Positions 3,696 to 19,343 are shown, counted from the stretch's first letter. The stretch is 64,000 nucleotides of DNA from an uncultured Chloroflexia bacterium (GCA_963828165.1 CAWHDR010000001.1:960001-1024000); one strand, 5' to 3'. Made by a program: numbers and translations. The notes: generated from the sequence alone by a model not told the origin.

Positions 3696-5075
3696 ATGAC
3701 CCGGCGTCGCGTCCTGAGCGCGCTCCAGTTCTTTCCGCGCGGCGGGTCGTCGCATGTCGCCCGCGCACTCGCGCGGGAGCTTCCGGCGCATGGCTGGGAC
3801 GTCACGATCCTGTCCGGCTCGCGGCGGGACCTCGAGGGTGTCGGCGACGCGGCGCGCTTCTACGCGGGCCTCGACGTGTATCCGGTGTCATTCGACGAGG
3901 CGCTCGCTTCGCCCGACCCACTGGCTCCGCCCCCGGGTGTTGCGCCGATCCAGCCGTCGTACGAGGATCGCCCCGGCGCTCCGGACCGGGTGTTCGCCAT
4001 GCTCGACGACCATGCCTACGAGCGGCAAGTACGCGCTTGGGCGAGCGTCCTGACCACCGCCGGCGCCGCCCGATTCGACGCGCTGCACCTGCACCATCTG
4101 ACGCCGATCCACGAGGCGGCAGCGCGAGTCGCTCCAGCGGTCCCGATCGTCGGACATCTGCACGGCACCGAGCTGCTGATGCTCGAGGCGATCGCAGCCG
4201 GCCCGCCGCTCAGCTGGACGCACGCCGAGGCGTGGGTCGAGCGAATGCGCCGCTGGGCGCACGGTTGCGAGCGACTCGTGCTGGTCTCCCCATCGGAGAT
4301 CCCACGCGTTGAGCGGTTGCTCAGCCTGGGTACGGACCGGCTGGTGGTGCTGCCGAATGGGTTCGACCCGCGCGTCTTCGCGCGGCGCGATGTCGATCGC
4401 GCGTCGCTCTACCGCGATGCGCTCGTCGAAGCGCCGCGCGGCTGGTCTGCCGGCCAGGAAGCCGGCAGCGTCCGCTACCTGCCCGAGGACGTTTCGACCC
4501 TCGCTGACGGGGTGGTGGTGCTCACGGTCAGCCGCTTCACCGGGGTAAAGCGGCTCCCGCTACTCATCGAGGCATTCGCCCTGGCCCGCGATCGCGCGCG
4601 GACGCCCACCGGGCTGGTGATCGTCGGTGGCCACCCGGGCGAGTGGGAGGGAGAGCACCCTGCCGATACGATCGCCCGACTCGGAGTGCGCGGCGTCTTC
4701 CTGGCCGGCTGGCGCGACCACGCTGAGGTCTCCGAATTCCTGTCGGCCGCGGACCTGTTCGCCCTGGCCTCAGTTCGCGAACAGTTCGGCCTCGTGCTCG
4801 TCGAAGCGATGGCGTGCGAGATGGCGGTGATTGCCGTCGACCGCTTCGGGCCTGGCGAGATCATCGACGACGGCGAAACCGGCTGGCTGGTGGAGCCCGA
4901 CGATGTCGGGGGCCTCGCCGGGGCGCTGCTCCACGCAGTCGACGACCCCGCTGAGCGGGCGCGCCGCGGCGCCCATGCGCGCGCCGTCGCCATCGAGCGC
5001 TACGGCTGGCCAAAACTCGCCGAGCGCCTGGCCGGCGTGTTGGATGCCTCCGTGGTCGGGCCACCAAGGCGATAA
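3696..5075 (+). CDS. Glycosyltransferase family 4
   Basis: 'LPNGFD', 'VSRFTGVKR', 'EQFGLVLVEAMA' GT-B motifs; CACACT-N6-ATG leaderless start. Confidence 0.9.
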   Translation: MTRRRVLSALQFFPRGGSSHVARALARELPAHGWDVTILSGSRRDLEGVGDAARFYAGLDVYPVSFDEALASPDPLAPPPGVAPIQPSYEDRPGAPDRVFAMLDDHAYERQVRAWASVLTTAGAARFDALHLHHLTPIHEAAARVAPAVPIVGHLHGTELLMLEAIAAGPPLSWTHAEAWVERMRRWAHGCERLVLVSPSEIPRVERLLSLGTDRLVVLPNGFDPRVFARRDVDRASLYRDALVEAPRGWSAGQEAGSVRYLPEDVSTLADGVVVLTVSRFTGVKRLPLLIEAFALARDRARTPTGLVIVGGHPGEWEGEHPADTIARLGVRGVFLAGWRDHAEVSEFLSAADLFALASVREQFGLVLVEAMACEMAVIAVDRFGPGEIIDDGETGWLVEPDDVGGLAGALLHAVDDPAERARRGAHARAVAIERYGWPKLAERLAGVLDASVVGPPRR

Positions 5076-5240: not shown

Positions 5241-5265
5241 CTCCGTTTGCGTCCGCCAATGACAC
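5241..5265 (+). repeat. Cassette site R1
   Basis: CTCCGTTTGC-GTCCGCCAATGACAC. Confidence 0.85.
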
Positions 5266-5339
5266 CTGAGACCGCTGCGCCTTCCCCGCGCATTCGTGCC
5301 TCGCTACGACTTAGTCGGCCCGCCGCCGTTCACCGCCTT

Positions 5340-5714
5340 CTAATTCCTGACCGTGTAGACGGTGTGATTGGCGATCCGATTCGCGAGGACGCGGTCGAGC
5401 ACGTCCGCTCGCGGCAGTTCTACGCGCTGATCGACGCTGTCGGAGCTCCAGGTGGCAGTCAACTCCAGCACGCCAGTCAGCTGGCTGAACAACGTCGATA
5501 GGTCGGCATGCAGGCTCGATCGATGCTCCTTGGGAAGCTTCCAACCGGATGGGCGATCCCATTCGCGGACCATCTCGCACCCGTGGAGAGACAACGTCGG
5601 CTCCTCGTCATCCCGGTCGATTTCCCAGTCGAGGGAGACGGGCGCGCGGTCCCAGCCGATGAGGTTCGCTCGATCCGACGGAGTCATCGGGCGCACGACG
5701 TAGACCATGCACAT
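5340..5714 (-). CDS. Cassette 1 hypothetical protein
   Basis: 124-aa ORF between R1 and R2; TACCCT-N6-ATG. Confidence 0.65.
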   Translation of the reverse strand: MCMVYVVRPMTPSDRANLIGWDRAPVSLDWEIDRDDEEPTLSLHGCEMVREWDRPSGWKLPKEHRSSLHADLSTLFSQLTGVLELTATWSSDSVDQRVELPRADVLDRVLANRIANHTVYTVRN

Positions 5715-5772
5715 GCCGCGAGGGTAGCAGTCGGCCCGCTGTTGGGCCCTCCCGTCGTCACAGCTCCCCGTG

Positions 5773-5797
5773 GTCGCAATGCGTCCGCCAATGACAC
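5773..5797 (+). repeat. Cassette site R2
   Basis: GTCGCAATGC-GTCCGCCAATGACAC. Confidence 0.9.
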
Positions 5798-6402
5798 TAG
5801 GGCGATAAATCCTCGCACTGAGTCAGAGTCTTCCCCGGCTTCACGAATTGACAAAGCGCGTCGTAGGAATCGTCGGAGCCTTTGAGCACGAGATACTTCG
5901 GGTAGGCGCCGAGGTGGTCGCCCTCGCCTTCATTGGTTTCCATCAGCAGAGCCGTTCGAGCTGGCACGCCGGGGATCCGGTATACCGTCCTCTTCTCGCC
6001 TTCATAGGACGTCGTGCCAGATGCCTCGAGACCATTGGGCCAATCGAAGCTTCGACCAATGGACACCAGGTATGGGTCCCCATTGACGGTTGCCGTGGCG
6101 GCCTCGAGAACCTCTGTCACGACCACGTTGCCTGGAAGCTGAACGACGTCCACTCGCGCGCTGACATGCGACCGAGTAGGGTCGGCAACCGCGACGCTCG
6201 GGGCACCGGCCTCGGGGCGGTCTGCCGGCCGGGACAGGCCGAGGACGGCGACGGCGGCCACGACTCCGAGCGCCACTATCGGAACCCAGCGCGGAAGGAG
6301 CGGACCCGGCTCATCCTCGGACGTCGCGACGACGGCGAAGGTCTCGGGCAGCTGACGATGTCGGTCGACATCCGCGAAGACGGTCGCCTGTTGATCACGC
6401 AT
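5797..6402 (-). CDS. Cassette 2 hypothetical membrane-anchored protein
   Basis: Hydrophobic segment 'WVPIVALGVVAAVAVLGL'; stop codon overlaps the last base of R2; TAGCCT-N8-ATG. Confidence 0.65.
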   Translation of the reverse strand: MRDQQATVFADVDRHRQLPETFAVVATSEDEPGPLLPRWVPIVALGVVAAVAVLGLSRPADRPEAGAPSVAVADPTRSHVSARVDVVQLPGNVVVTEVLEAATATVNGDPYLVSIGRSFDWPNGLEASGTTSYEGEKRTVYRIPGVPARTALLMETNEGEGDHLGAYPKYLVLKGSDDSYDALCQFVKPGKTLTQCEDLSP

Positions 6403-6428
6403 GTGCTCTCAGGCTACTCGACCTTGGT

Positions 6429-6453
6429 GTGGCTTAGCGTCCGCCAAAGTCAC
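6429..6453 (+). repeat. Cassette site R3
   Basis: GTGGCTTAGC-GTCCGCCAAAGTCAC. Confidence 0.88.
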
Positions 6454-6833
6454 CCGAATGGAGTAGCGCCAGGATCTGAGCCTGCGCGCATCGGCGAAAC
6501 GGGAAGCGAACTGGGGTCCGAAGCGTGAAGTCCATCCTCGGCAGAGAACATGACCAGTGCGACGACGAGGGCGTCACCGCTGGGCGATCGCAGCCGGAAT
6601 CCCTTTCGGTCATACGTCAGCGCCTTCAGAGCGTCCTCGCCCCCGATCGAGCGGACCTCGGCCGGTGAGACTTCGTCGATGGACTCGATGTCGAGCCCAT
6701 CCGGCATGTGAAGGAAGCTCACGCCCTTGAAGAGAACGTCGATCCGTGTCGGATTGTCGTTGTCCCGCTGGCTCCTCAGCAGCAGTTGGGCGTGAGTAAC
6801 CGCGTACTCCCATATGACGTAGCGGCGCGTCAC
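6450..6833 (-). CDS. Cassette 3 hypothetical protein
   Basis: 'WEYAVTHAQLLLRS..TRIDVLFKGV' looks like a conserved small-protein family; TGA inside R3; start placed at GTG 6833 (uncertain). Confidence 0.65.
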   Translation of the reverse strand: MTRRYVIWEYAVTHAQLLLRSQRDNDNPTRIDVLFKGVSFLHMPDGLDIESIDEVSPAEVRSIGGEDALKALTYDRKGFRLRSPSGDALVVALVMFSAEDGLHASDPSSLPVSPMRAGSDPGATPFG

Positions 6834-6928
6834 CGCGCAAACGAAAACGGGGTGCCAAGGACCGCACCCCCGAGGACGAAGGTGACCCTCCCAAACGGCC
6901 GCATTGCGCGATGTTACAGGCCACCCCG

Positions 6929-6953
6929 GTCGCAAAGCGTTCGCGAATGTCAC
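6929..6953 (+). repeat. Cassette site R4
   Basis: GTCGCAAAGC-GTTCGCGAATGTCAC. Confidence 0.85.
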
Positions 6954-7660
6954 TCGACCGGGGGCTTGAAACCGTAGCGTGCCTGCTCGTCCGCGATCGT
7001 GTAGCTGAGATCGGGCCGGAAATCCCGAGTTGTAATCAGCAATCCCTCTAATCCATAGAAGCTCTCGTCGAATGGGCGCAGGCCGATCGCCCGGCAGTAT
7101 CGATCGACCAGTGCCGGCGTCAGTCGGTCCGCCACGCGGCGGGCCCCGTAGGAACGGAGGTCCTCGTAGGGCTGCGGACGCCCGGTCGCGACGAAGACCA
7201 AACGGCCACCATCATCACGTCCCACATGAACGGTGCGTTCATGGTTGAGAAAATCAGTTGGGTGGTCGGCGATGAGCTGGAAGCGAAGGGTCTCATGGCT
7301 CGGTACCGGCCACCACACGATGTAGACGGCGCGGCATCTCATCATCTCCGCGATCACACCGACCGGAGCTTCGTCAGCACCGGTGTGCTGGTTGCTGAAG
7401 TAGGCCGTCCAATCGGACCGCGTGCCAAGGAGTAGCTCGCGATTGCCTAGGCTCATCGGTTCCAGGGCAGATAGGACCTCGCGAAGCGGCCCAACCACGC
7501 CCAGCTCGACCGGCTGCAGATCGAGTCCTCGACGCCATGCGGCCAGGACTTCGGCAACTTCGCCGATCGCGGCGTCGAAGAACGCGTAGGCGCCCGTGAT
7601 GGGCCACAGCTCCGCTCCGAGAAGCGGTTTTGGCTCGGGCGCCGCGGGTTCGTCGTGCAT
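6950..7660 (-). CDS. Cassette 4 hypothetical protein (possibly immunity-like)
   Basis: 236-aa ORF filling R4-R5; TGA inside R4; TACGCT-N7-ATG; motifs 'WTAYFSN', 'GRPQPYED..Y'. Confidence 0.7.
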   Translation of the reverse strand: MHDEPAAPEPKPLLGAELWPITGAYAFFDAAIGEVAEVLAAWRRGLDLQPVELGVVGPLREVLSALEPMSLGNRELLLGTRSDWTAYFSNQHTGADEAPVGVIAEMMRCRAVYIVWWPVPSHETLRFQLIADHPTDFLNHERTVHVGRDDGGRLVFVATGRPQPYEDLRSYGARRVADRLTPALVDRYCRAIGLRPFDESFYGLEGLLITTRDFRPDLSYTIADEQARYGFKPPVE

Positions 7661-7696
7661 GCGAACAAGCGTATCGGGCGGGACCAGGCCGCTCGG

Positions 7697-7721
7697 CTCA
7701 GTCTGTGTCCGCCAATGTCAC
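7697..7721 (+). repeat. Cassette site R5
   Basis: CTCAGTCTGT-GTCCGCCAATGTCAC. Confidence 0.9.
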
Positions 7722-8053
7722 CCGGTCGACTGCCGAGATTGGCGGGCGGCGCGATCCGCTGCGTAGCGCCTCGCCACGGCCTTCAGCTCGTCAATCGAGG
7801 CATCGCTTCGAGCACTCCACGCGTCCCATTCGCCGTGGGGGTAGCTCAGCAATTGGAAGAGCGCGGCCTGGACGACGTGGTATGTCTGGTCGGTCCCAAT
7901 CCCCTCCGGCCACACATCGAGGACCGCCCGAACCGTGTCTCGCTCGTAACCGAAGAGGGTCGGGAATTCCCAGTCGGGATAGAGCGGGCCATCGACCGTG
8001 GCAAGAAGGACGCTATGGATGACATCGCGATCGCGTTCCGTCAACGCCGCCAT
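7718..8053 (-). CDS. Cassette 5 hypothetical protein
   Basis: 'GPLYPDWEFPTLFG..LLSYPHG' small conserved-looking protein; TGA inside R5; TACACT-N6-ATG. Confidence 0.72.
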   Translation of the reverse strand: MAALTERDRDVIHSVLLATVDGPLYPDWEFPTLFGYERDTVRAVLDVWPEGIGTDQTYHVVQAALFQLLSYPHGEWDAWSARSDASIDELKAVARRYAADRAARQSRQSTG

Positions 8054-8076
8054 TGCCGGAGTGTAGGCATCGCGAG

Positions 8077-8101
8077 GTCTCACAGTGTTTGGGAATGTCA
8101 C
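8077..8101 (+). repeat. Cassette site R6
   Basis: GTCTCACAGT-GTTTGGGAATGTCAC. Confidence 0.85.
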
Positions 8102-8139
8102 CCGAAAGCGGGGGCACTCCGACCTGTCATGCTCCACGT

Positions 8140-8439
8140 GTGTCCACGGAGTCGGCCGAGAAGACCGAGCAGTTTGAGTACGAGGTCGCGGAGGCTCTTG
8201 CGCTCCCGCAGCACGGCATCGGCGCGATTGGCTGGATCCGTGTCGGGACAGTTCGAATTGGCGACCAAGTAGCCGTCGACGATGACGCAGCTGAGCCATA
8301 CACGGTTCGCGGAGTAGGAATTCTCGACGGGCTGGGACCGAAAGCGGGTAGCGCCAACATCGAGCTTCTCCTCGACGACTACGGCACGAAACGATTGGCG
8401 CCAGGCGTTCCAATTCGCAGGTGGAGAGACTTCACCTAG
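8140..8439 (+). CDS. Cassette 6 small protein resembling the EF-Tu domain II beta-barrel
   Basis: 'FEYEVAEALALPQHGIGAIGWIRVGTVRIGDQVAV' parallels the EF-Tu D2 pattern; CATGCT-N6-GTG. Confidence 0.55.
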   Translation: MSTESAEKTEQFEYEVAEALALPQHGIGAIGWIRVGTVRIGDQVAVDDDAAEPYTVRGVGILDGLGPKAGSANIELLLDDYGTKRLAPGVPIRRWRDFT

Positions 8440-8454
8440 GGCGAGGGCAACCGC

Positions 8455-8479
8455 ACCGTTACGTATCCGCCAATGTCAC
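8455..8479 (+). repeat. Cassette site R7
   Basis: ACCGTTACGT-ATCCGCCAATGTCAC. Confidence 0.82.
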
Positions 8480-9087
8480 TCGAGCGTGAGCTTTCCGTGT
8501 GCTCCCGTCAGGGAGATCGACCACGCCCCGGATGAACCCGTCACGGCGATCGGTAGGTCGTGGTCGCCGAGCCAGTCGGCGAGACGTTCTTGGTCTGCCG
8601 CCACCGACAGAAGCGTCAGACTGACCGAACCATCCCGATGGCGAACGGCGGCGGCTCCCGGCACCTGCATGCCGTCTCCCCATTGGATGAAGAACGGAAG
8701 CCCGGGCTCGCGCACGGCGATTTCGACACCTACGCTGCGCCAGGCGATGAGGGCACCCCGGGGATCGACTCGCGAACCAGGAAGGACGGGCTGGCCGAGC
8801 CTTCGCCCGACAGCGTCGATCGAATCCGTTCGAACAGCCCAGCCGAGCGGGCTTCCCGGAAGCGCGGAGGCGACCCATCGCCCGAAGGCGCTCCGACTCG
8901 CCGCCTCGCGGTCGGCCACCGCGACGAGCTCGAGATAGGACTCGCCGAGCGGGACGATCCAATTGGCCGTACCCCACGCTGGATGCCGCCCACCCTCAAC
9001 GGAGACAAGCCCGTACCGAGCCTTCAGCCTGGCCACCTCGGCCGCGAGGTCACGGACGGGCAGGATCACGTGATCGATCGCTAGCAC
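8476..9087 (-). CDS. Cassette 7 VOC/glyoxalase-like protein
   Basis: 'IDHVILPVRDL', 'GGRHPAWGTAN', 'YLELVAV', 'LPFFIQW'; TGA inside R7. Confidence 0.85.
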   Translation of the reverse strand: MLAIDHVILPVRDLAAEVARLKARYGLVSVEGGRHPAWGTANWIVPLGESYLELVAVADREAASRSAFGRWVASALPGSPLGWAVRTDSIDAVGRRLGQPVLPGSRVDPRGALIAWRSVGVEIAVREPGLPFFIQWGDGMQVPGAAAVRHRDGSVSLTLLSVAADQERLADWLGDHDLPIAVTGSSGAWSISLTGAHGKLTLE

Positions 9088-9121
9088 AGCTCACTCAAGG
9101 TGGTACCCGCTGGGCTCACAG

Positions 9122-9169
9122 GTGTCCGGGAAGGTTTCTCAGATCGGCCACGTATGGGGGCTATGTCAC
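9122..9169 (+). repeat. Degenerate/split cassette site R8
   Basis: GTGTCCGGGAAGGTTTC (9122-9138) followed by ...GGCTATGTCAC ending 9169, which holds the next gene's TGA. Confidence 0.5.
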
Positions 9170-9567
9170 CTGTCAGGTTCGGCCGCGTCGAACGGTGGCA
9201 GGGCGTGCTGCCCGAACGATTCCTGCCACCCAACATAGGCGACCGACAACCCGTCACTTACGTCGGTCAGGTCCGTCGTGGCACCGGTCAACTCGTTGGT
9301 GCCGACCACTTTGATCCAAGGCAATCGCTCGATAGCCCACATCGTATTGCTCACCGCCTCGTTCGTCACGGCGACGACGAGCTCTCGCACGAACTGCTGC
9401 CCTTCGGGCGAAAGGGCCTGAAAGGCAACCCCGACATCCCGTGCGCCAGGAAACCGCATCCGCCCCTCGAACGTGGCGAACCAGTTACTGATCGTGTAGT
9501 CGAACCCGGTCTCGACGATCTCCCGACCGAGGGCAGCGAGCGCGTCCATTTCGTCATCGATGGTCAC
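9166..9567 (-). CDS. Cassette 8 hypothetical protein (possibly immunity-like)
   Basis: 'GRM..LSPEGQQFVRELV..DVSDGL..GW..F' helical protein; TGA inside R8. Confidence 0.65.
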   Translation of the reverse strand: MTIDDEMDALAALGREIVETGFDYTISNWFATFEGRMRFPGARDVGVAFQALSPEGQQFVRELVVAVTNEAVSNTMWAIERLPWIKVVGTNELTGATTDLTDVSDGLSVAYVGWQESFGQHALPPFDAAEPDR

Positions 9568-9590
9568 GGTGAGAGTATGCGGCCGGGACC

Positions 9591-9640
9591 CATGGGATCG
9601 GGTCGAAGCGAGGGAGCCCTTGCGACTGTCCACAAGCGTC
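9591..9640 (+). repeat. 50-bp direct repeat, copy 1 (5' end of cassette 8)
   Basis: CATGGGATCGGGTCGAAGCGAGGGAGCCCTTGCGACTGTCCACAAGCGTC identical to 9917-9966. Confidence 0.95.
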
Positions 9641-9662
9641 TCACAGTGTTCGGGAATGTCAC
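9638..9662 (+). repeat. Cassette site R9
   Basis: GTCTCACAGT-GTTCGGGAATGTCAC, one mismatch from R6. Confidence 0.9.
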
Positions 9663-9700
9663 CCGAAAGCGGGGGCACTCCGACCTGTCGGGCTCCACGT

Positions 9701-9913
9701 GTGTCCACGGAGTCGGCCGAGAAGACCGAGCAGTTTGAGTACGAGGTCGCGGAGGTTCTTGCGCTCCCGCAGCACGGCATCGGCGCGATTGGCTGGATCC
9801 GTGTCGGGACAGTTCGAATTGGCGACCAAGTAGCCGTCGGCGATGACGCAGCTGAGCCATCCACGGTTCGCGGAGTAGGAATTCTCGACGGGCTGGGACC
9901 GAAGGCGGGTAGC
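9701..9913 (+). pseudogene. Truncated duplicate of the cassette 6 gene
   Basis: 9638-9913 matches 8077-8352 with 7 substitutions by eye, then breaks off after 'GPKAGS'. Confidence 0.85.
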
Positions 9914-9916
9914 CCG

Positions 9917-9966
9917 CATGGGATCGGGTCGAAGCGAGGGAGCCCTTGCGACTGTCCACAAGCGTC
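9917..9966 (+). repeat. 50-bp direct repeat, copy 2
   Basis: Identical to 9591-9640; ends in the GTC that begins R10. Confidence 0.95.
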
Positions 9967-9988
9967 GCTTGGTGTCCGCCAATGTCAC
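9964..9988 (+). repeat. Cassette site R10
   Basis: GTCGCTTGGT-GTCCGCCAATGTCAC. Confidence 0.9.
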
Positions 9989-10036
9989 CCGAAGCAAAGA
10001 GCGTTGGTAGCGGCCGGCAGGGGCGCCAGTCCGTCC

Positions 10037-10459
10037 CTAGACGGCCTCAAACATGTGTGCTAGGGACGTAGCGATCAAGGACAGCGAGCCGGGGTCCACG
10101 ATTACCTGTGCCGTCACCTTCCAGGCCGGTTCGTGCCATTCGTGGACAGGATCGACGCCCAGCACCACCTGGATGGCGACGTGTCCGATGCGGTCGTGCC
10201 AACATGTCAACTGGAAGTTGCCGTCGCCGTAGGAGTCCCAGCCTCGTGGGCCTTCCCAGCCTTTCCAATCCCGGGCGAGGCCCTGGAAAAAGTCCACCAG
10301 CTCACCGCCCTGGATGTAGTGACCGGGAAACACCGGTTCTGACGCTGTGATTCCGGGGAGGTCGAGAGAAACGACGAACGACTGCCCAACCGGGTCGTCG
10401 GTTTGGAAGGTCAGCGTGGCTCCCGGCTGGCCGATGGTCACCGAGGGCGTGGGTTCCAT
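10037..10459 (-). CDS. Cassette 10 DUF6228-like protein
   Basis: 'LVDFFQGLARDWKGWEGPRGWDS..LTCWHDRIGHV..W' pattern; TACAGT-N6-ATG. Confidence 0.75.
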   Translation of the reverse strand: MEPTPSVTIGQPGATLTFQTDDPVGQSFVVSLDLPGITASEPVFPGHYIQGGELVDFFQGLARDWKGWEGPRGWDSYGDGNFQLTCWHDRIGHVAIQVVLGVDPVHEWHEPAWKVTAQVIVDPGSLSLIATSLAHMFEAV

Positions 10460-10589
10460 CCGACGACTGTAGCAACCACAGGCCGCATTTGGCAGGCCGG
10501 GCAGCACTCGAGCTGCATGTCCGCAAGGCTCAGGTCGGGCTGCGGACGATCTGAATGACCGCTGGACTCGGCAGTGACGCCGCGTGATC

Positions 10590-10614
10590 CTCCCAAAGTG
10601 TCCGGGAATGTCAC
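10590..10614 (+). repeat. Cassette site R11
   Basis: CTCCCAAAGT-GTCCGGGAATGTCAC. Confidence 0.88.
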
Positions 10615-10738
10615 CTGACGAAGTGGAGAGGTGGTGTGTACGCGTGCCCGCTCGCACCAGACATCGCGGTTCGGTCGTTCCATGTGCGGGCTGTTCGAGT
10701 CATGCTCAACGGCAACGCTCCGAGATTGGAGGACCGGG

Positions 10739-11182
10739 ATGCTCCCGCCGGCGAGAAGACCGTCTGACAGGATGCCTCGGCAGGCCGCGCAGGGTGGCAG
10801 GTCGCCGTGGCTGCTGGCTGTGCTCGTGTTCCTCTCCGTCAGCCTGGTGACCCTCGGCCCGACGAGCTGGCCTCATGTGGTCGACGCGGATTGTCCGGCG
10901 CCAGAGTTCATGCTCGATTCCGACGGCGATTGCATGGCCCGAGGCACGCTCATCGTCATGACCGGCGCGCCTTCCGACGGCAAAACTCGCGCGGACCTCG
11001 AACGCGCCATTGAACCGCTCGGCGGACGGATCGAGACGGACGTCGACGCTCTGAGGATCTACGGAGTTCTGTTTCCGTCAGCGGACACCCTTGCAGAGCT
11101 CGACGAACTGGAGGCCGCCCTCGAAGCGCTCGGATTCTGGGTCAGCCGCTCATACACCGGGGAACTGTTCGCCACGACCTGA
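10739..11182 (+). CDS. Cassette 11 putative secreted/membrane protein
   Basis: GGAGG at 10728-10732 before the ATG; hydrophobic 'WLLAVLVFLSVSLVTLG'. Confidence 0.6.
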   Translation: MLPPARRPSDRMPRQAAQGGRSPWLLAVLVFLSVSLVTLGPTSWPHVVDADCPAPEFMLDSDGDCMARGTLIVMTGAPSDGKTRADLERAIEPLGGRIETDVDALRIYGVLFPSADTLAELDELEAALEALGFWVSRSYTGELFATT

Positions 11183-11289
11183 GCCACGCCCCTGCCGGCG
11201 TGCGGAATCCGCGCCGCGGCGCGCCCGGCTGGTCCGATCGGAGCCCGAGTCATCGGTGGTCGTCACCTTCGGGTGTAGAGCACGCAAGC

Positions 11290-11314
11290 GTCAGTCACTG
11301 TGCGTCGATGTCAC
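11290..11314 (+). repeat. Degenerate cassette site R12
   Basis: GTCAGTCACT-GTGCGTCGATGTCAC retains the leading GTC and the terminal ATGTCAC. Confidence 0.65.
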
Positions 11315-11732
11315 CAGGGCCATCCCAGGCCGCCATGACCTGTTCTTGATCCGTCTTGCTTTCGCCGAGGTGCGTGACGCCTCCGGCAGTCACCTCGTGG
11401 CGGGAGCTCAGGTCCGACCACGGCTCGGCGTAGGCGAATCCCTCGAGTACATCCAGAACACCGTCCTGAACGAACAGCACGAACCCGGCCCCATGCTCCA
11501 AGCCTTCGATGGTTGCGGTGACGTCCCCAAGGTCCATCCTCCCGGGCTTCACGGGGGCGGGCGCAGCATCCGTCGCGACATCGAGCTCCGTGATGAAGCC
11601 CACGCCTGTCATCTGGCGCGACGCCACCTGGCAACGCTCGACTTGGCGGCGAAGCGCATTCATGACGGGGTGGTCCGGCGCGAGGATGGCCGCGATCACG
11701 TCCCGCTCCAACAAGCTCAGCGCGTCGGCCAT
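11295..11732 (-). CDS. Cassette 12 hypothetical protein
   Basis: 'RQMTGVGFIT..GLEHGAGFVLFVQDG.LDVLEGFAY.EPW'; reads through the R12 core; TAACGT-N7-ATG. Confidence 0.75.
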   Translation of the reverse strand: MADALSLLERDVIAAILAPDHPVMNALRRQVERCQVASRQMTGVGFITELDVATDAAPAPVKPGRMDLGDVTATIEGLEHGAGFVLFVQDGVLDVLEGFAYAEPWSDLSSRHEVTAGGVTHLGESKTDQEQVMAAWDGPGDIDAQ

Positions 11733-11757
11733 GCCGGGCACGTTACAACGCGGTTGT

Positions 11758-11782
11758 GTCCCTCAGTGTCCGCCAATGTCAC
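11758..11782 (+). repeat. Cassette site R13
   Basis: GTCCCTCAGT-GTCCGCCAATGTCAC. Confidence 0.9.
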
Positions 11783-12317
11783 CCGGTCCGGCCACGATAC
11801 GGAAAACCATCCATTGGTCGTGGAAACCCGCGCAGAGCGGGACATCCGGGCTCCACTTGGCTGATGCGCGACCGAAGGCGGCGATGGTACGGGCTAGCAG
11901 GTGGAGATTGCGCGCCTCGTCCGCAGCGTTACCGCGCCACGTGGTTGCTAACAGGGCAGCAAGTTCAGGCACAGCAGGCCCAGAACGGACCTGTGACGGA
12001 TCGAAGTCCGATGCCCAACTGTCGTCACCAACGGACTCAGACTCATAAGAGAGACACTCGAAGAACGCACTACTCCATCCGTTATCGACGTCAAACTCCC
12101 AATAGACCGCGGCCGTGGTCTTGTCCAGTCGGTTGCCCAAGGCGTCGATGCTGTCCGCAAGGGCAGAGGTATACGAACTGAGATCGACCGAGGACACGGC
12201 CGCGGCCGCCTCAGGATCAAGGCGACGGCAGTCTTCGGCGAATGTGTACTCGAGACCATCCCAATCGCGGCTGGCGATCCAGGCTCTCATCGCTTCCACG
12301 CCCGCATCGATATCCAC
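11763..12317 (-). CDS. Cassette 13 hypothetical protein (possibly immunity-like)
   Basis: 'AVYWEFDVDNGW..DDSWASD..CAGFHDQ'; reads through the R13 core; TACCCT-N6-GTG. Confidence 0.7.
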   Translation of the reverse strand: MDIDAGVEAMRAWIASRDWDGLEYTFAEDCRRLDPEAAAAVSSVDLSSYTSALADSIDALGNRLDKTTAAVYWEFDVDNGWSSAFFECLSYESESVGDDSWASDFDPSQVRSGPAVPELAALLATTWRGNAADEARNLHLLARTIAAFGRASAKWSPDVPLCAGFHDQWMVFRIVAGPGDIGGH

Positions 12318-12342
12318 GCTCGGAGGGTACGGCACCGCCGGG

Positions 12343-12681
12343 TCACATGGCGTGATCTCCCCCGAGGTCTTCCGCCTCTTCCAGTACCAGCAACGTCGAC
12401 AGACCTGGTGCGATCTCGCGCAGGTTTCGGCCCGCGGCGCGCATCGCGTCCGAAGCGAGACCCGCGTCCATCGCCGCGCGATCGTCGAATTCCATCGCCG
12501 TGACCAACACAAGGTCGGTCTCGCCTCCCAGGGCCTCGGAAACGCGCTGCACCTTGGTCGAGCGCAAGCCCGGCGTCTCGGCAACGAGAGGCAGATGTTC
12601 CGTCGCGTAGCGACGCTCGAACTCGGCGAGCGCGTCGGGGCCGCCCTCAGGGCGGCGATACAGGGCGAGTAGCGTGGTCAT
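12343..12681 (-). CDS. EthD family reductase
   Basis: 'LYRRP..FERRYATEHLPLV..PGL..MEFDD' EthD pattern. Confidence 0.8.
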   Translation of the reverse strand: MTTLLALYRRPEGGPDALAEFERRYATEHLPLVAETPGLRSTKVQRVSEALGGETDLVLVTAMEFDDRAAMDAGLASDAMRAAGRNLREIAPGLSTLLVLEEAEDLGGDHAM

Positions 12682-16211: not shown

Positions 16212-17861
16212 ATGACCCAGGCACGTTCGCGCGACGACGTCATCAAGCAGGACGTCGCCGACCTGCATTCGCTCGGCTACGCGCAGGAGCTGTTCCGCTC
16301 GATGGGCGGTTTCAGCAACTTCGCGATCAGCTTCTCGATCATCAGCATCCTGACCGGCGCGGTCATCCTCTACGACTACGGCCTCGCCTGGGCGGGCAAG
16401 GCCGCGGTGACGCTCGGCTGGCCGCTGATCACGATCTTCGTGCTTGCCATCGCCGCGGCGATGGCCGAGATCGCCTCTGCCTACCCCACGGCCGGCGGCC
16501 TGTACTACTGGGCCAGCCGGATGAAGAACAAGAACTGGGGCTGGTGGACCGCGTGGCTGAACCTGATCGGCCAGTTCGCCATCGTCGCGGGCATCAACTA
16601 CGCGGCTGCGGGCTTCATCAACGCGACGATCATCGAGCGCCTGACCGCTCCAACGTTCGCGAACACGACGGAGATCATCCCGGGGATCCTCAATGGCCAA
16701 CTCGTGACCATGGGCATCCTCATGCTCATCCAGCTGGTGATGAACATCCGGGGGATCAACCTCGTCGCGATGCTCAACCAGGTCAGCGTCTGGTGGCACA
16801 TCGTCATCGTCGCGGCCGTCGTCCTGCTCATCTTCGTGACCGGCAAACCGGACGAGTCCGGTCTGCCGCTGTTCGGGATCCAGCCGTTGGATACGGCCGG
16901 AAGCTGGGACAACAATCTGGGTGTGGTCCATCTGACCTACGGCCCGGCCATCTCGTACCCGATCGTGCTGGCCTTCTTCTTCTCGCTCCTCCAGGCGAAC
17001 TGGACCTACACGGGCTACGACGCCTCGGCGCACGTCGCCGAGGAGACCGTCGGTGCCCGGGTCGCCAGCGCGTGGGGACTCTTCCTGTCAGTGGCGGTCA
17101 GTGCGGTCGTCGGATTCATCTTCCTGCTCGCGCTGTCCACGCACCTGCCGGACCTGTCGGCGCTCTTCCCGGCATCGCTGGACGACGCCGCGACCTACAG
17201 CCAGTACTACTTCGGTGGCGGCGTGGCGGTCATCGAGATCCTGCGCTACAACCTCGGCCAGCTCGGCGACGTCCTTTCGGCAGGCATCGCCATCGCCATG
17301 GCGTTCTGCGGGCTTTCGTCGGTCGCGTCGGCGGGCCGCATGCTGTACGCGTTCAGCCGCGACGACGGGCTGCCCGGCTCGGGCTGGCTCAAGAAGGTGT
17401 CCCACACCTATCGAACCCCGGCGAATTCGCTGATCGCGATCGTCGTGATCTCGTGGCTGTTCACGGTCGCCGCGTTCATCGTCGGGACCGGGACTGCCAT
17501 CGTGATCGTCACGGCGATCAGCACGATCTTCCTGTACGCGGCGTATGGGATCTGCATCTACCTGGGCGCGACGACCGAAGAATGGATGAAGGAGCGCGTC
17601 TGGAGCCTCGGTCGGTGGTCGAAGCCGATCGCCTGGATCGCCATCGCCTGGGTGATCGTGCTCATGGTCCTCTTCAGCTTCCCGACATCGGGCAACATCA
17701 GCTGGCCGTTCATGGTGGTGACGGTCCTGTTCCTGCTCGTCTATTACTTCGCGTCGGCACGTCGCACGTTCAAGGGCCCGAAGTCCATGGGCGACGCCGC
17801 CGAATTGACGGAGATCGAGCGGGAGTTCTCGCACGAAGCCGAGAAGCTCAGCACCACTTGA
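16212..17861 (+). CDS. APC family amino acid/amine permease
   Basis: 'GYAQELFR..FSNFAISFSIIS', 'AYPTAGGLYYW', 'GYDASAHVAEET', multiple TM segments. Confidence 0.92.
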   Translation: MTQARSRDDVIKQDVADLHSLGYAQELFRSMGGFSNFAISFSIISILTGAVILYDYGLAWAGKAAVTLGWPLITIFVLAIAAAMAEIASAYPTAGGLYYWASRMKNKNWGWWTAWLNLIGQFAIVAGINYAAAGFINATIIERLTAPTFANTTEIIPGILNGQLVTMGILMLIQLVMNIRGINLVAMLNQVSVWWHIVIVAAVVLLIFVTGKPDESGLPLFGIQPLDTAGSWDNNLGVVHLTYGPAISYPIVLAFFFSLLQANWTYTGYDASAHVAEETVGARVASAWGLFLSVAVSAVVGFIFLLALSTHLPDLSALFPASLDDAATYSQYYFGGGVAVIEILRYNLGQLGDVLSAGIAIAMAFCGLSSVASAGRMLYAFSRDDGLPGSGWLKKVSHTYRTPANSLIAIVVISWLFTVAAFIVGTGTAIVIVTAISTIFLYAAYGICIYLGATTEEWMKERVWSLGRWSKPIAWIAIAWVIVLMVLFSFPTSGNISWPFMVVTVLFLLVYYFASARRTFKGPKSMGDAAELTEIEREFSHEAEKLSTT

Positions 17862-17888
17862 CCTCTCGCCGATCGATCATGCGCAAAT

Positions 17889-17915
17889 GACCCGGCCGGT
17901 CTCGCCGGCCGGGTC
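17889..17915. other. Intergenic hairpin
   Basis: GACCCGGCCGG-TCTCG-CCGGCCGGGTC, 11-bp perfect stem with no U-tract. Confidence 0.6.
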
Positions 17916-17942
17916 GACCTACCTACCCCAGCGGAGTCCCCC

Positions 17943-19343
17943 ATGACCGACCACGGCCACGCGACCAAGCATCCACGCCTGGCGGAGCTCGAGGGCATGG
18001 TCCGCGACGGGCGGATCGACACGATCGTCGTGGCCTTCACCGACATGCAGGGCCGGCTCATGGGCAAACGCGTCCAGGGCCAGGCCTTCCTCGACGGGGT
18101 CATCTCCCACGGCGCTCACTTCTGCACGTACCTGCTCGGTACGGACATGGAGATGAACACGCCTGACGGCTTCAAGCTCATGAACTGGGAGACCGGCTAC
18201 GGGGACTGGATCGCCGAGCCCATCTGGGACCAGCTCCGGATCCTCCCCTGGCTGCCCGGGACGGCCATGGTCCTCGCCGACACGATCGACGAGGAGACCG
18301 GGGACGAGATTCCCGTCTCACCGCGCACGATCCTCAAGCGCCAGGTGACGCGCGCCGCCGATGCCGGCTACGCGATCAAGGCTGGCTCGGAGTTCGAGTT
18401 CTACGTCCTCAAGGATTCCTGGGAGGATCTCGCCGAACGCGGTTGGCCGGTCCCCAGGCCGTTCGGCCACTACAACGAGGACTACCACCTGCTCCAGGCG
18501 ACCAAGGCGGAGCCCCTCCATCGGCTGCTGCGCAATCAGATGACCGAGGCGAATGTCCCGATCGAGTTCAGCAAGGGCGAGGCGGCCAACGGCCAGCACG
18601 AGGTCAACATCCGCTACGACCACGTCCTCGAGTCGGCCGATCGGAGCGTGGTCTTCAAGCACGGGGCCAAGGAGATCGCCTACCTGAACGGCTGGGGAAT
18701 CACGTTCATGGCGAAACCCGACCATCGCTGGACGGGTTCGTCCGGGCACCTGCACATGAGCGTCTGGGATGTCGTCAAGGACGTGCCGCTGATGCACGCG
18801 ACCGGCCGCGAGAAGGCGGGACCTTACGGCCTATCGAAGGTGGGCCAGCAGTTCATGGCCGGGATGATGACGCTGTCCCGCGAACTCGCCGTGTTCGTCG
18901 CGCCGTTCATCAACTCCTACAAGCGCTACGCGTCGCTGTCATGGGCGCCAGTGAACGTGGTGTGGGGCCGTGACAACCGGACGACGGGCTTCCGGCTCGT
19001 CGGCCGCGGCCCGGCGCTGCATGTCGAGAATCGCTTCCCGGGTGGCGACATGAACGCCTACCTCACCTACGCCGCGATGATCGGCGCCGGTCTGTACGGC
19101 ATCGAGCACGGCCTGAAGCTCGAGCCCGAATTCAAGGGCAACGGCTACCTCGCAACGGGCCATCCCCGGATGCCGCGCGCCCTGTACGAGGCGATCGGGG
19201 AGCTGGAACGCTCCGAGGCCGCCCGCGCGATCTTCGGCGAGGACGTCGTGGACCACTATCTCAACGCCGCCCGCGTGGAACAGGAGACGTACGACGCGAT
19301 GGTCCACCCGTGGGACCGTGAGCGCTACCTCGAGCGCGGCTGA
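17943..19343 (+). CDS. Glutamine synthetase-family protein (gamma-glutamyl-amine ligase-like)
   Basis: 'DMQGRLMGKR', 'EFEFY', 'GQHEVN', 'TFMAKP..GSSGHLHMS', 'WGRDNRT', 'ENRFPGGD'. Confidence 0.9.
   Translation: MTDHGHATKHPRLAELEGMVRDGRIDTIVVAFTDMQGRLMGKRVQGQAFLDGVISHGAHFCTYLLGTDMEMNTPDGFKLMNWETGYGDWIAEPIWDQLRILPWLPGTAMVLADTIDEETGDEIPVSPRTILKRQVTRAADAGYAIKAGSEFEFYVLKDSWEDLAERGWPVPRPFGHYNEDYHLLQATKAEPLHRLLRNQMTEANVPIEFSKGEAANGQHEVNIRYDHVLESADRSVVFKHGAKEIAYLNGWGITFMAKPDHRWTGSSGHLHMSVWDVVKDVPLMHATGREKAGPYGLSKVGQQFMAGMMTLSRELAVFVAPFINSYKRYASLSWAPVNVVWGRDNRTTGFRLVGRGPALHVENRFPGGDMNAYLTYAAMIGAGLYGIEHGLKLEPEFKGNGYLATGHPRMPRALYEAIGELERSEAARAIFGEDVVDHYLNAARVEQETYDAMVHPWDRERYLERG

Follow-up and report, generated by a model that had tools for sequence, protein, structure and literature searches.

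What organises the interval between positions 5241 and 12342 of this window, in which small genes alternate with copies of a single short repeat? The window is the whole 64-kb stretch of DNA that was analysed (G000:C1:960001-1024000), and its source genome, G000, is a 3.31 Mb assembly in six contigs (70% G+C, 87.7% complete) of a soil Chloroflexota bacterium of the Limnocylindria type. The initial annotation, made from the window alone, had described 13 copies of an unfamiliar short site, each with one gene, and had proposed a platform for gene capture and shuffling. We find that the array is a real feature and that it occurs lineage-wide. We consider it probable (roughly 0.7) that the interval is an array of mobile single-gene cassettes, one of five in the genome, moved by site-specific exchange that acts in trans.

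With up to three mismatches allowed, the 15-nt core of the repeat matches the window 15 times, 11 times on the plus strand between 5251 and 11782; the remaining four matches are dispersed, with three mismatches each. Shuffled versions of the window gave a mean of 2.39 core matches and at most seven, and none of 100 shuffles gave 15. For scoring we used a 27-nt weight matrix made from 31 clustered genomic copies, and strong sites were those with a score above 20. Twelve of the 13 copies named in the initial annotation (those at 5241, 5773, 6429, 6929, 7697, 8077, 8455, 9638, 9964, 10590, 11290 and 11758) score between 20.1 and 39.5, and all 12 have the same orientation, as do all sites inside each of the other arrays. 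The copy at ~9145, flagged as degenerate beforehand, fails the matrix. The G+C content is 0.61-0.69 inside the array versus 0.69-0.74 in its flanks, in line with the description of one short AT-rich gene per copy, but one of these genes (10772-11182) lies on the opposite strand. Nor are all the cassette genes unrelated to each other, as had been thought, since the intervals 8077-8455 and 9638-9964 are duplicates (97% identity over 276 bp). The site had been placed in front of its gene, and this has to be reversed: the array genes are on the minus strand, so each site lies at the 3' end of its own gene and belongs to the gene that precedes it in the direction of transcription. The array does sit between two ordinary host genes, for a GT4 glycosyltransferase and an EthD-like protein. 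The statement that no further full site exists holds within the window, but the genome contains four more arrays with 34 further sites.

The strong sites of G000 are confined to arrays. All 46 fall in five of them and none elsewhere: array A at C1:585581-591156 (10 sites), array B in the window (12), array C at C1:1609100-1611570 (5), array D at C1:1778060-1778741 (2) and array E at C5:13382-22610 (17). Seven other matches in the genome score above 12 (best 17.9), and shuffled sequence gives six to nine such matches. From one site to the next, the intervals measure ~0.3-1.2 kb in the G000 arrays and 0.1-1.5 kb at other loci, and the genes inside them have coding signal. A CRISPR array was considered and rejected, as the intervals are gene-bearing and variable in length rather than short, uniform, non-coding spacers.

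Beyond G000, a strict pattern search of 40 relatives revealed small site clusters in several genomes of the same genus, and no cluster in 16 small genomes of a sister family. Among 185,579 species genomes the scan returned 51 stretches, 24 of them with at least two sites, and 23 of these 24 are records of high-G+C Chloroflexia, Chloroflexota or Limnocylindria/Limnocylindrales. The lone exception is a 5.2-kb contig binned as an actinomycete. Single matches in other taxa agree with the ~17 estimated by chance. Soil metagenomes contributed at least 132 further sites in at least 51 high-G+C loci. In viral contigs the pattern was matched exactly three times, by one sequence on contigs of 45% G+C, and we took these matches as chance.

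Read in the direction of the genes, the site is GGTGWCATT-SS-CG-S-AC-R-CTTTGCGAC, with a conserved block of 26-27 bp. In a logo built on 156 distinct sites, taken from G000 and other genomes, the sequence is near-invariant from C at position 0 to A at position 26, apart from variable positions at 1, 2, 6, 11, 12, 15, 18, 21-24 and 27. Weaker conservation extends beyond the site (G at +34, T at +40 and C at +43). Arrays from all loci, including those from metagenomes, were cut from site to site, which yielded 244 cassettes, 235 of them unique. In 88 of the 235, an open frame of at least 45 codons is ended by a stop codon that belongs to the site itself, either TGA in GTGAC or TAG at positions 1-3.

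Comparison of the cassettes points to mobility. There are 32 families with at least two members, and homologous cassettes have unrelated upstream neighbours in 36 pairs and unrelated downstream neighbours in 37. The window cassette at 10590-11316 has copies in array E (91% identity) and array C (86-89%), array A holds a second cassette of the window at 72%, and further ones are found in different genomes. Only one pair of loci has more than one cassette family in common, and these are identical arrays from two samples. The same host gene can also carry different arrays. A PPDK-like gene is followed by arrays in G000 (2 sites), G001 (at least 4) and G059 (at least 13) that are composed of different cassettes, with one cassette in common at 93% identity and at a different rank. 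Arrays also lie behind mfd in three metagenome contigs.

The same pairs allow the edges of the mobile unit to be placed. For the downstream site we took one pair per family (15 families, at least 80% identity) and calculated the likelihood of a break between cassette-linked and background identity. The posterior for this break is 0.39 at 25|26 and 0.44 at 26|27, and pairs that are 98.6-100% identical diverge from position 27 on. The upstream sites were inspected pair by pair, because the summed model ran to the edge of the compared region, some pairs being homologous over part of the cassette body. In four clean pairs, differences extend to position 23 or 24 and identity begins at 25-28, which places the break between positions 24 and 28. 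Thus, the mobile unit would extend from about position 27 of one site, through the leader and the gene, to position 26 of the next site. This comparative evidence supports the mobility of the cassettes and places the junction to within about three bases (site positions 24-28).

Where the arrays begin is also informative. Arrays B, C, D and E start with an element, recognised by the matrix or by eye, that consists of the right half of the site only (ACRC...GCGAC). In array E this element lies before a unit that encodes a serine recombinase, and in the others at or just past the stop codon of a host gene in the same orientation. At the head of array A, a shorter and weaker version (ACAAAGCGAC) lies inside the 3' end of lysA; it was seen by eye and was unflagged by the half-site matrix. 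The exact 12-mer ACGCTTTGCGAC has four copies in the genome outside strong full sites, two of them beside degenerate left halves within arrays, versus ~0.3 expected by chance. At the PPDK-like locus, each of three species has a right-half element 11-21 nt past the stop codon, followed by different cassettes. The head element resembles a simple primary site.

Loci that are occupied in G000 are empty in relatives. The YmdB and PHP genes are 12.6 kb apart in G000. Of 50 relatives with the gene, 14 were compared, and in 13 of these the two are adjacent and without a site; the fourteenth (L079) has one extra gene between them, also without a site. UGDH and speE are separated by 142 bp without a site in G042 versus 2.9 kb in G000. 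Two of the G000 arrays are insertions relative to their kin. The empty locus of G042 lacks the right-half element, which implies that this element came with the array. For array E, the intergenic DNA of the empty target in relatives is too diverged for alignment. An orthologue of the GT4 gene that flanks the window array occurs in three of 40 other genomes of the genus (78-79% identity); none of the three retains EthD or a hydrolase alongside it, and there is no array there, so that loci were compared at other arrays.

Two observations concern the ends of array E. The YmdB frame at L001:17602-18801 (G000:C5:22602-23801) is open for 399 residues, and its extension enters the last site of the array; the YmdB matches in 50 relatives end at about residue 231-379 (mostly 258-306), mostly at a stop codon. 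At the other end, contig C6 (24,105 bp) is a variant of 95-97% identity that bridges the end of C1 (C1:2892395-2903510) and the start of C5 (C5:1-10206). From this, C1 and C5 are chromosomal neighbours and the assembly holds two strains here. The final base of the orphan right half at the head of array E is also exactly where contig C6 ends, so that the two co-assembled strains diverge from that point.

Taken together, the confinement of sites to arrays, the variable arrays, the empty loci and the homology that ends at the site support the capture and shuffling platform proposed in the initial annotation. A different account would treat the repeat as a transcription signal at gene boundaries, which ends one transcript and serves the following one as upstream promoter element or operator, with arrays that are built and shuffled by homologous or illegitimate recombination and need no dedicated recombinase. 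Some features of the site do have a regulatory appearance. In 88 of 235 cassettes, TANNNT occurs downstream of the site and is followed 4-10 nt on by a start codon that opens at least 45 codons; as controls, reverse complements had this layout in 7 of 235 cases and an internal offset gave it in 2 of 164. The -10 box has its T at site position 40 in 50 cases, and it is separated from the start codon by 6 nt in 57 cases and by 7 nt in 20. Such a spacing is that of leaderless promoters in high-G+C bacteria, which suggests that about a third of cassettes bring their own predicted -10 box and leaderless start. The conserved right half lies a fixed 12-13 nt upstream of the -10 box of the following cassette, and orphan right halves precede the first gene of arrays, including the serine recombinase gene. 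In the window, the layout of site, -10 box and start is found at six of 13 junctions, one of them at the right-half-only site at 12342-12353.

A transcription signal would also account for the lack of a dedicated recombinase among the genes found. It does not explain why breakpoints cluster at positions 24-28 instead of being spread over 27 bp of common sequence, why one and the same 3' site, often enclosing the stop codon, is found on more than 200 unrelated low-G+C genes, or why entire arrays are absent at the same loci in relatives. Scans of the arrays found no sigma-70-type promoters, and terminator-like sites were at chance level; a search against Rfam gave no credible family. We therefore regard a purely regulatory repeat as quite unlikely, although regulatory and recombination roles of the site could both be true together.

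Site-bounded, co-oriented single-gene cassettes with the site 3' of the gene and the junction at the site end are also what a classical integron, or a cluster of attC sites without integrase (CALIN), would show. The attC sites of integrons are longer imperfect palindromes that fold as single-strand hairpins, and integron cassettes are promoterless and expressed from a common promoter. The site studied here is 26-27 bp long. Twelve single-stranded DNA folds (60-nt stretches at six sites, both strands) had z values from -1.38 to +1.95 and no shared hairpin. The best scores against the integron-integrase model in G000 are 113-115 bits versus a cut-off of 265. Many cassettes (the 88 of 235) have a predicted promoter and start of their own, and there are five arrays in the genome. 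An integron or CALIN in the usual sense is scarcely credible on this evidence. The remark in the initial annotation that the site fits neither attC nor dif well stands: there is no hairpin folding, and the sequence differs from the dif site of the genus.

If cassettes are exchanged at a defined site, which enzyme acts on it? The initial annotation placed the recombinase elsewhere in the genome. In agreement with this, no recombinase adjoins four of the five arrays, but the enzyme itself was not found. The G000 genome encodes three tyrosine recombinases and one serine recombinase. None of the tyrosine recombinase genes is within 100 kb of arrays A-D, where the flanking genes are housekeeping genes. 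One of these genes is XerD-like (313 bits, cut-off 329.6) and another XerC-like (283 bits, cut-off 335), and both pass the general model of the tyrosine-recombinase subfamily; the two genes are at L070 3656-4645 and L069 3425-4342. A pair of tyrosine recombinase genes lies 41-49 kb apart in all six array genomes examined, and this XerC/XerD-like pair is the only recombinase type found in all six. The third tyrosine recombinase (C1:454488-455279) was considered as the array enzyme and rejected. Its best matches, in three of 40 genus genomes, have identities of 43%, 39% and 34%, and other matches have 26-30%, or are short fragments with up to 44% over 71-101 residues.

Other types of enzyme do not recur. 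Among five array genomes, Y1_Tnp was found in none, IS110 DEDD in none, rve in one and REP_ORF2-G2P in two. In 222 open reading frames (ORFs) from array flanks, the only recurring families are housekeeping ones (a PPDK-like pair and Mfd), with no recurring recombinase. The array of G060 is the only examined array with tyrosine recombinases near it, 3-8 kb away. The region concerned (L067:9626-16593, G060:C2) contains, 1.5-8 kb from the array head, three large ORFs with no Pfam family as well as two genes for tyrosine recombinases, and is probably a separate integrated element.

The constant presence of XerC/XerD-like genes raises the idea that the sites are diverged dif-like sequences and the cassettes Xer modules of the pdif or IMEX type. 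We identified the dif site of the genus as TTCCGATAA-GGTGAG-TTATGTCY. It was found in 22 of 31 genomes, always as a single copy, and a reversed control pattern never matched. The likely chromosomal dif of G000 is TTCCGATAA-GGTGAG-TTATGTCC at C1:2888994-2889016. The cassette site has ATGTC in common with the XerD-side arm of the genus dif, and two weakly inverted arms around 7 bp can be read in it. Against this, agreement in the arms is limited to about 4 of 9 and 5 of 8 positions. The pdif modules are bounded by sites in alternating orientation, whereas the sites within an array are direct repeats and none alternate. The junction does not fall at a border of arm and spacer but at the site's outer edge. 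Finally, no array is located at dif itself; array E is ~25 kb away and the others are not near. Modules of this kind are thus a very unlikely explanation.

The only serine recombinase of the genome deserves attention because of its position. This large enzyme (gene at L001:5211-6308) is encoded in a 3.2-kb unit (L001:5195-8408, G000:C5:10195-13408), together with a small ORF and a Rep protein of the rolling-circle type (REP_ORF2-G2P), and this unit occupies the first slot of the largest array (array E, 17 sites), bounded like a cassette. At its head are an orphan right half, 12 nt, TAATGT, 6 nt and GTG, and at its end is a full site. The unit is 77% identical in DNA to units in G043 and G060/G105, and a copy in G043 (79% identical) has the same head. 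It looks like a small integrating plasmid. The cassettes could accordingly be non-autonomous passengers of a large serine recombinase element, as in pseudo-SCC/Ccr systems, with exchange at the invariant GA (positions 25-26). The junction does fall at this conserved non-palindromic dinucleotide, and weak NCBIfam matches of the recombinase include XisF and Ccr types, all far below cut-offs. The distribution of the enzyme speaks against such a role. Relatives occur in just five of 100 other genus genomes and in no other array locus among 217 examined, and none was found in viral contigs. Any serine recombinase at all was found in two of five other array genomes, away from the arrays; the copy in G060/G105 is decayed, has no site near it and is separated from the array by ~250 kb. 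The incompleteness of metagenome-assembled genomes (87.7% complete for G000) weakens these absences. We consider the passenger explanation unlikely, and equally doubt that a large serine recombinase from one cassette slot is the array enzyme.

We infer the enzyme, the mechanism, the expression and the function of the arrays from the comparisons above. In the model of mobile cassettes that we prefer, a cassette in the direction of transcription would consist of a short leader (often with a -10 box and leaderless start), a small gene and the 26-bp site GGTGWCATT-SS-CG-S-AC-R-CTTTGCGA. Cutting and joining would take place at the 3' edge of the site (..GCGA|C), and with the junction there the whole site would travel with the preceding gene, as attC does in an integron. 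An array would grow behind a primary site that has the right half only (ACRCTTTGCGAC), at the 3' end of a housekeeping gene. Since the right half lies 12-13 nt before the next -10 box, each insertion would rebuild the same promoter context. The exchange would be conservative and site-specific, by an enzyme that is encoded elsewhere and acts in trans, with the 11-12 bp right half as binding arm and cleavage at its border, as in integrons or Xer-driven integrating elements.

An arm of 11-12 bp, a joint at its 3' border and a right-half head that is sufficient are as expected of a tyrosine recombinase that exchanges one strand, as in integrons and Xer-driven phage integration. This geometry favours a trans-acting enzyme of the single-strand-exchange tyrosine type. 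The host XerC/XerD-like pair would be the leading named candidate, and a not-yet-recognised enzyme seems about as likely. We put the Xer-like pair forward as a tentative possibility, with the odds somewhat against it, and see an unrecognised enzyme as having a chance a little short of even.

Several points weigh against the model of mobile cassettes. No recombinase generally co-occurs with or adjoins the arrays, and the third tyrosine recombinase and the serine recombinase are sporadic. The site is similar to the genus dif in ATGTC only, and its junction, at the outer edge, falls on no border of arm and spacer in a dif-like reading. The empty locus of G042, the only one readable base by base, has no recognisable target for entry of a first cassette. 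Positions 11-12 of the upstream site track the downstream cassette (0.78 versus 0.41 background), which is not predicted by one sharp junction. A tendency of neighbouring sites to share the central dinucleotide above chance was rejected (75 observed versus a within-array shuffle mean of 82.4), and since shuffled sites resemble each other as much as neighbouring ones do, this correlation is not explained by a choice of partners according to central identity. The junction statistics rest on 13-15 families, and the gene calls come from our own codon-usage scorer. No recombination event was directly seen. The sole public sequencing run holds 6% of the sampled words and gives short contigs; assembled to 11 pieces, it contains no joints and bridges no site, and is uninformative either way. 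Lastly, families that convey a function are present in few cassettes only, so that the reading of the cargo as immunity genes rests on a minority.

The cargo was called as 152 ORFs in arrays, 121 co-oriented and 31 opposite, with a median length of 126 residues. The scan covered 121 of the 152 and dropped ORFs shorter than ~60 residues, those in the wide intervals of L007, and YmdB. We identified 38 Pfam families among the 121 scanned, and most ORFs have no family. The families include Barstar (2), Imm1, T6SS_Tdi1_C, APH (2), APH_6_hur, AadA_C, Glyoxalase_3 and Cupin_2 (2), as well as DUF4265 (2), DUF4304 (2), DUF6228, DUF6881, DUF6193, DUF4279 and one IS-type integrase. The explicit immunity families (Barstar twice, Imm1 and T6SS_Tdi1_C once each) are a small minority of the 121, and several of the matched DUF families may be immunity families also. 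We infer, from a minority of the cassettes, that the cargo may consist of immunity and resistance genes, and the arrays would then likely be a store of such genes against the toxins of competitors. A spermidine synthase gene, normally a housekeeping gene, is bounded by sites in G074 and G024 (L093, L094, L095), and G074 has two copies in different contexts.

In the window, the array is read from high to low coordinates, and its features are on the minus strand except where noted. The upstream flank is the EthD/ABM-like host gene (12343-12681), in the same orientation as the array. The right-half-only site ACGCCATGTGAC (gene orientation; 12342-12353) starts the array and shares bases with the EthD stop codon; after it come 12 nt, TACCCT, 6 nt and GTG. 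The gene of cassette 1 (11763-12317, probable start GTG at 12317 or ATG at 12291) has no Pfam family, and its site is at 11758-11784 (score 39.4). Cassette 2 encodes a protein of 148 residues (11295-11741), also without a Pfam family, with a -10 box TAACGT at 11740-11745; it is the cassette with 72% DNA identity to one in array A, and its site (11290-11316, score 20.1) is the most diverged full site. The gene of cassette 3 (10772-11182) is on the plus strand, antisense to the array, and this is the cassette that recurs in arrays E and C; its site is at 10590-10616 (score 37.4). Cassette 4 encodes a DUF6228 protein (10037-10507, E 6e-21) and is followed by the site at 9964-9990 (score 36.7).

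Cassette 5 (9659-9919; site 9638-9664, score 33.1) duplicates the 8104-8454 cassette in truncated form, and a copy (47 nt) of the leader that belongs to the next cassette is fused to it. In this region (9590-9990), the 47-nt leader, including the ATG, of the 9166-9567 gene was copied before the truncated cassette copy, a rearrangement that is not accounted for by site exchange alone. The gene of cassette 6 (9166-9567, 133 residues) has no Pfam family and ends at the degenerate site (9145-9169), which retains only ATGTCAC, including the stop codon, and is under the matrix threshold. Cassette 7 encodes a Glyoxalase_3 protein (8476-9087, E 2.5e-37; site 8455-8481, score 27.1), and cassette 8 (8104-8454; site 8077-8103, score 30.7) is the full copy of the duplicated cassette, with an uncertain reading frame. 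Glyoxalase_3 and DUF6228 are the only named cargo in the window.

The gene of cassette 9 (7718-8053, 111 residues) is preceded by a -10 box TACACT at 8060-8065, 6 nt and ATG at 8053, and followed by the site at 7697-7723 (score 33.1). Cassette 10 encodes 236 residues (6950-7660) without a Pfam family, with a -10 box TACGCT at 7668-7673 and a site at 6929-6955 (score 39.5). The proteins of cassettes 2 and 10 have nearest ESM Atlas clusters named 'hypothetical protein' at 0.95; they look real, and no function follows. The start of the gene of cassette 11 (6450-6833; site 6429-6455, score 31.8) is uncertain, and the cassette has 80% DNA identity to one in L045. Within 6833-6929, an ATG at 6904 lies behind a -10 box but in a different frame from the coding sequence that ends at 6450, which may reflect a frameshifted cassette gene or another start. 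Cassette 12 (5797-6402, 201 residues) has a -10 box TAGCCT at 6411-6416 and a leader common to cassettes in L025 and L030. Its site (5773-5799, score 38.3) is of the GTGTC variant, with the stop codon as TAG at site positions 1-3. The gene of cassette 13 (5340-5714, 124 residues) has no Pfam family. The last site (5241-5267, score 31.2) has an intact left half and ends in CGGAG in place of GCGAC. Beyond it is the GT4 glycosyltransferase gene (3696-5075) on the plus strand, convergent with the array. Elsewhere in the window, a second dip in G+C (0.62-0.66) at 16500-19000 covers two long genes with strong coding signal (16212-17861 and 17943-19343), and contains no cassette sites.

Integrons are the textbook dedicated gene-capture platform, and the present arrays bear on whether other lineages evolved the same principle with different parts. 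The arrays described here have a clear signature of mobility (site-bounded homology, variable arrays and empty loci) in an abundant uncultured soil lineage. If they prove to be a new class of gene-capture system, they would represent a second, independently evolved form of the integron principle and a common store of immunity and resistance genes for soil bacteria. Cargo of the Barstar, Imm1, Tdi1, aminoglycoside-modifying and glyoxalase type suggests a soil reservoir of immunity and resistance genes that integron-centred surveys would fail to detect. The fixed spacing of site, -10 box and leaderless start leads to a model in which integration completes a promoter. Should the host Xer pair or an unknown recombinase turn out to be the enzyme, the range of known modes of accessory gene assembly would widen, and the compact 26-bp site could serve as a tool. 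A limited literature search found no description of such Chloroflexota arrays or of the site. We would call the system a gene-cassette platform, and it would be categorically new if the enzyme is a re-used Xer pair or belongs to an unknown family. That it is a new class of gene capture, with leaderless-promoter cassettes and a non-IntI enzyme (the Xer pair re-used on a non-dif site, or an unrecognised family), is a tentative proposal to which we give somewhat less than an even chance.

How do these arrays compare with known systems? SCC and pseudo-SCC elements use Ccr large serine recombinases and form tandem arrays at rlmH, where passengers without a recombinase rely on the enzyme of one element. 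They resemble the Chloroflexota arrays in tandem stacking at the 3' end of a housekeeping gene and in short direct repeats that can hold a stop codon. In contrast, the Chloroflexota cassettes are single genes of 0.3-1.1 kb at many loci, and a serine recombinase is rare among array genomes. The pdif modules and IMEX are likewise small modules without a recombinase of their own, presumed to be moved in trans by host recombinases, but the Chloroflexota site is unlike the host dif, forms direct repeats with a junction at its edge, and occurs in chromosomal arrays of up to 17 units.

The likeness to integrons is closer. Both have co-oriented, mostly single-gene cassettes of foreign base composition, with a site that lies 3' of the gene and moves with it, and a junction at the far end of that site. 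In both, the array is headed by a primary site of simpler make-up than those of the cassettes, and most cargo is without known function. The differences are in the parts. The Chloroflexota site is 26-27 bp and non-palindromic, with no single-strand hairpin; no integron-type integrase was found and no recombinase adjoins the arrays; and there are several arrays per genome, each behind a housekeeping gene, with a predicted -10 box of their own in about a third of cassettes.

In the rAID-1 clusters of Bacteroidales, orphan immunity genes are arrayed with repetitive sequences between them and a skewed G+C content, and each cluster is headed by a conserved gene for a XerD-family recombinase (Ross et al., bioRxiv 10.1101/471110). 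The two systems have in common G+C skew, intergenic repeats and a presumed origin by gene capture, and may both be arrays of immunity-type genes, although explicit immunity families are a small minority of the scanned Chloroflexota cargo. They differ in phylum, in the repeat and in the head recombinase, which is linked to the clusters there and to none of the Chloroflexota arrays, and cassette boundaries are mapped in the latter, with no such mapping seen for rAID-1 in the work cited. The closest analogues of the Chloroflexota arrays are therefore integrons and the rAID-1 clusters of Bacteroidales, of which rAID-1 is the nearest functionally.

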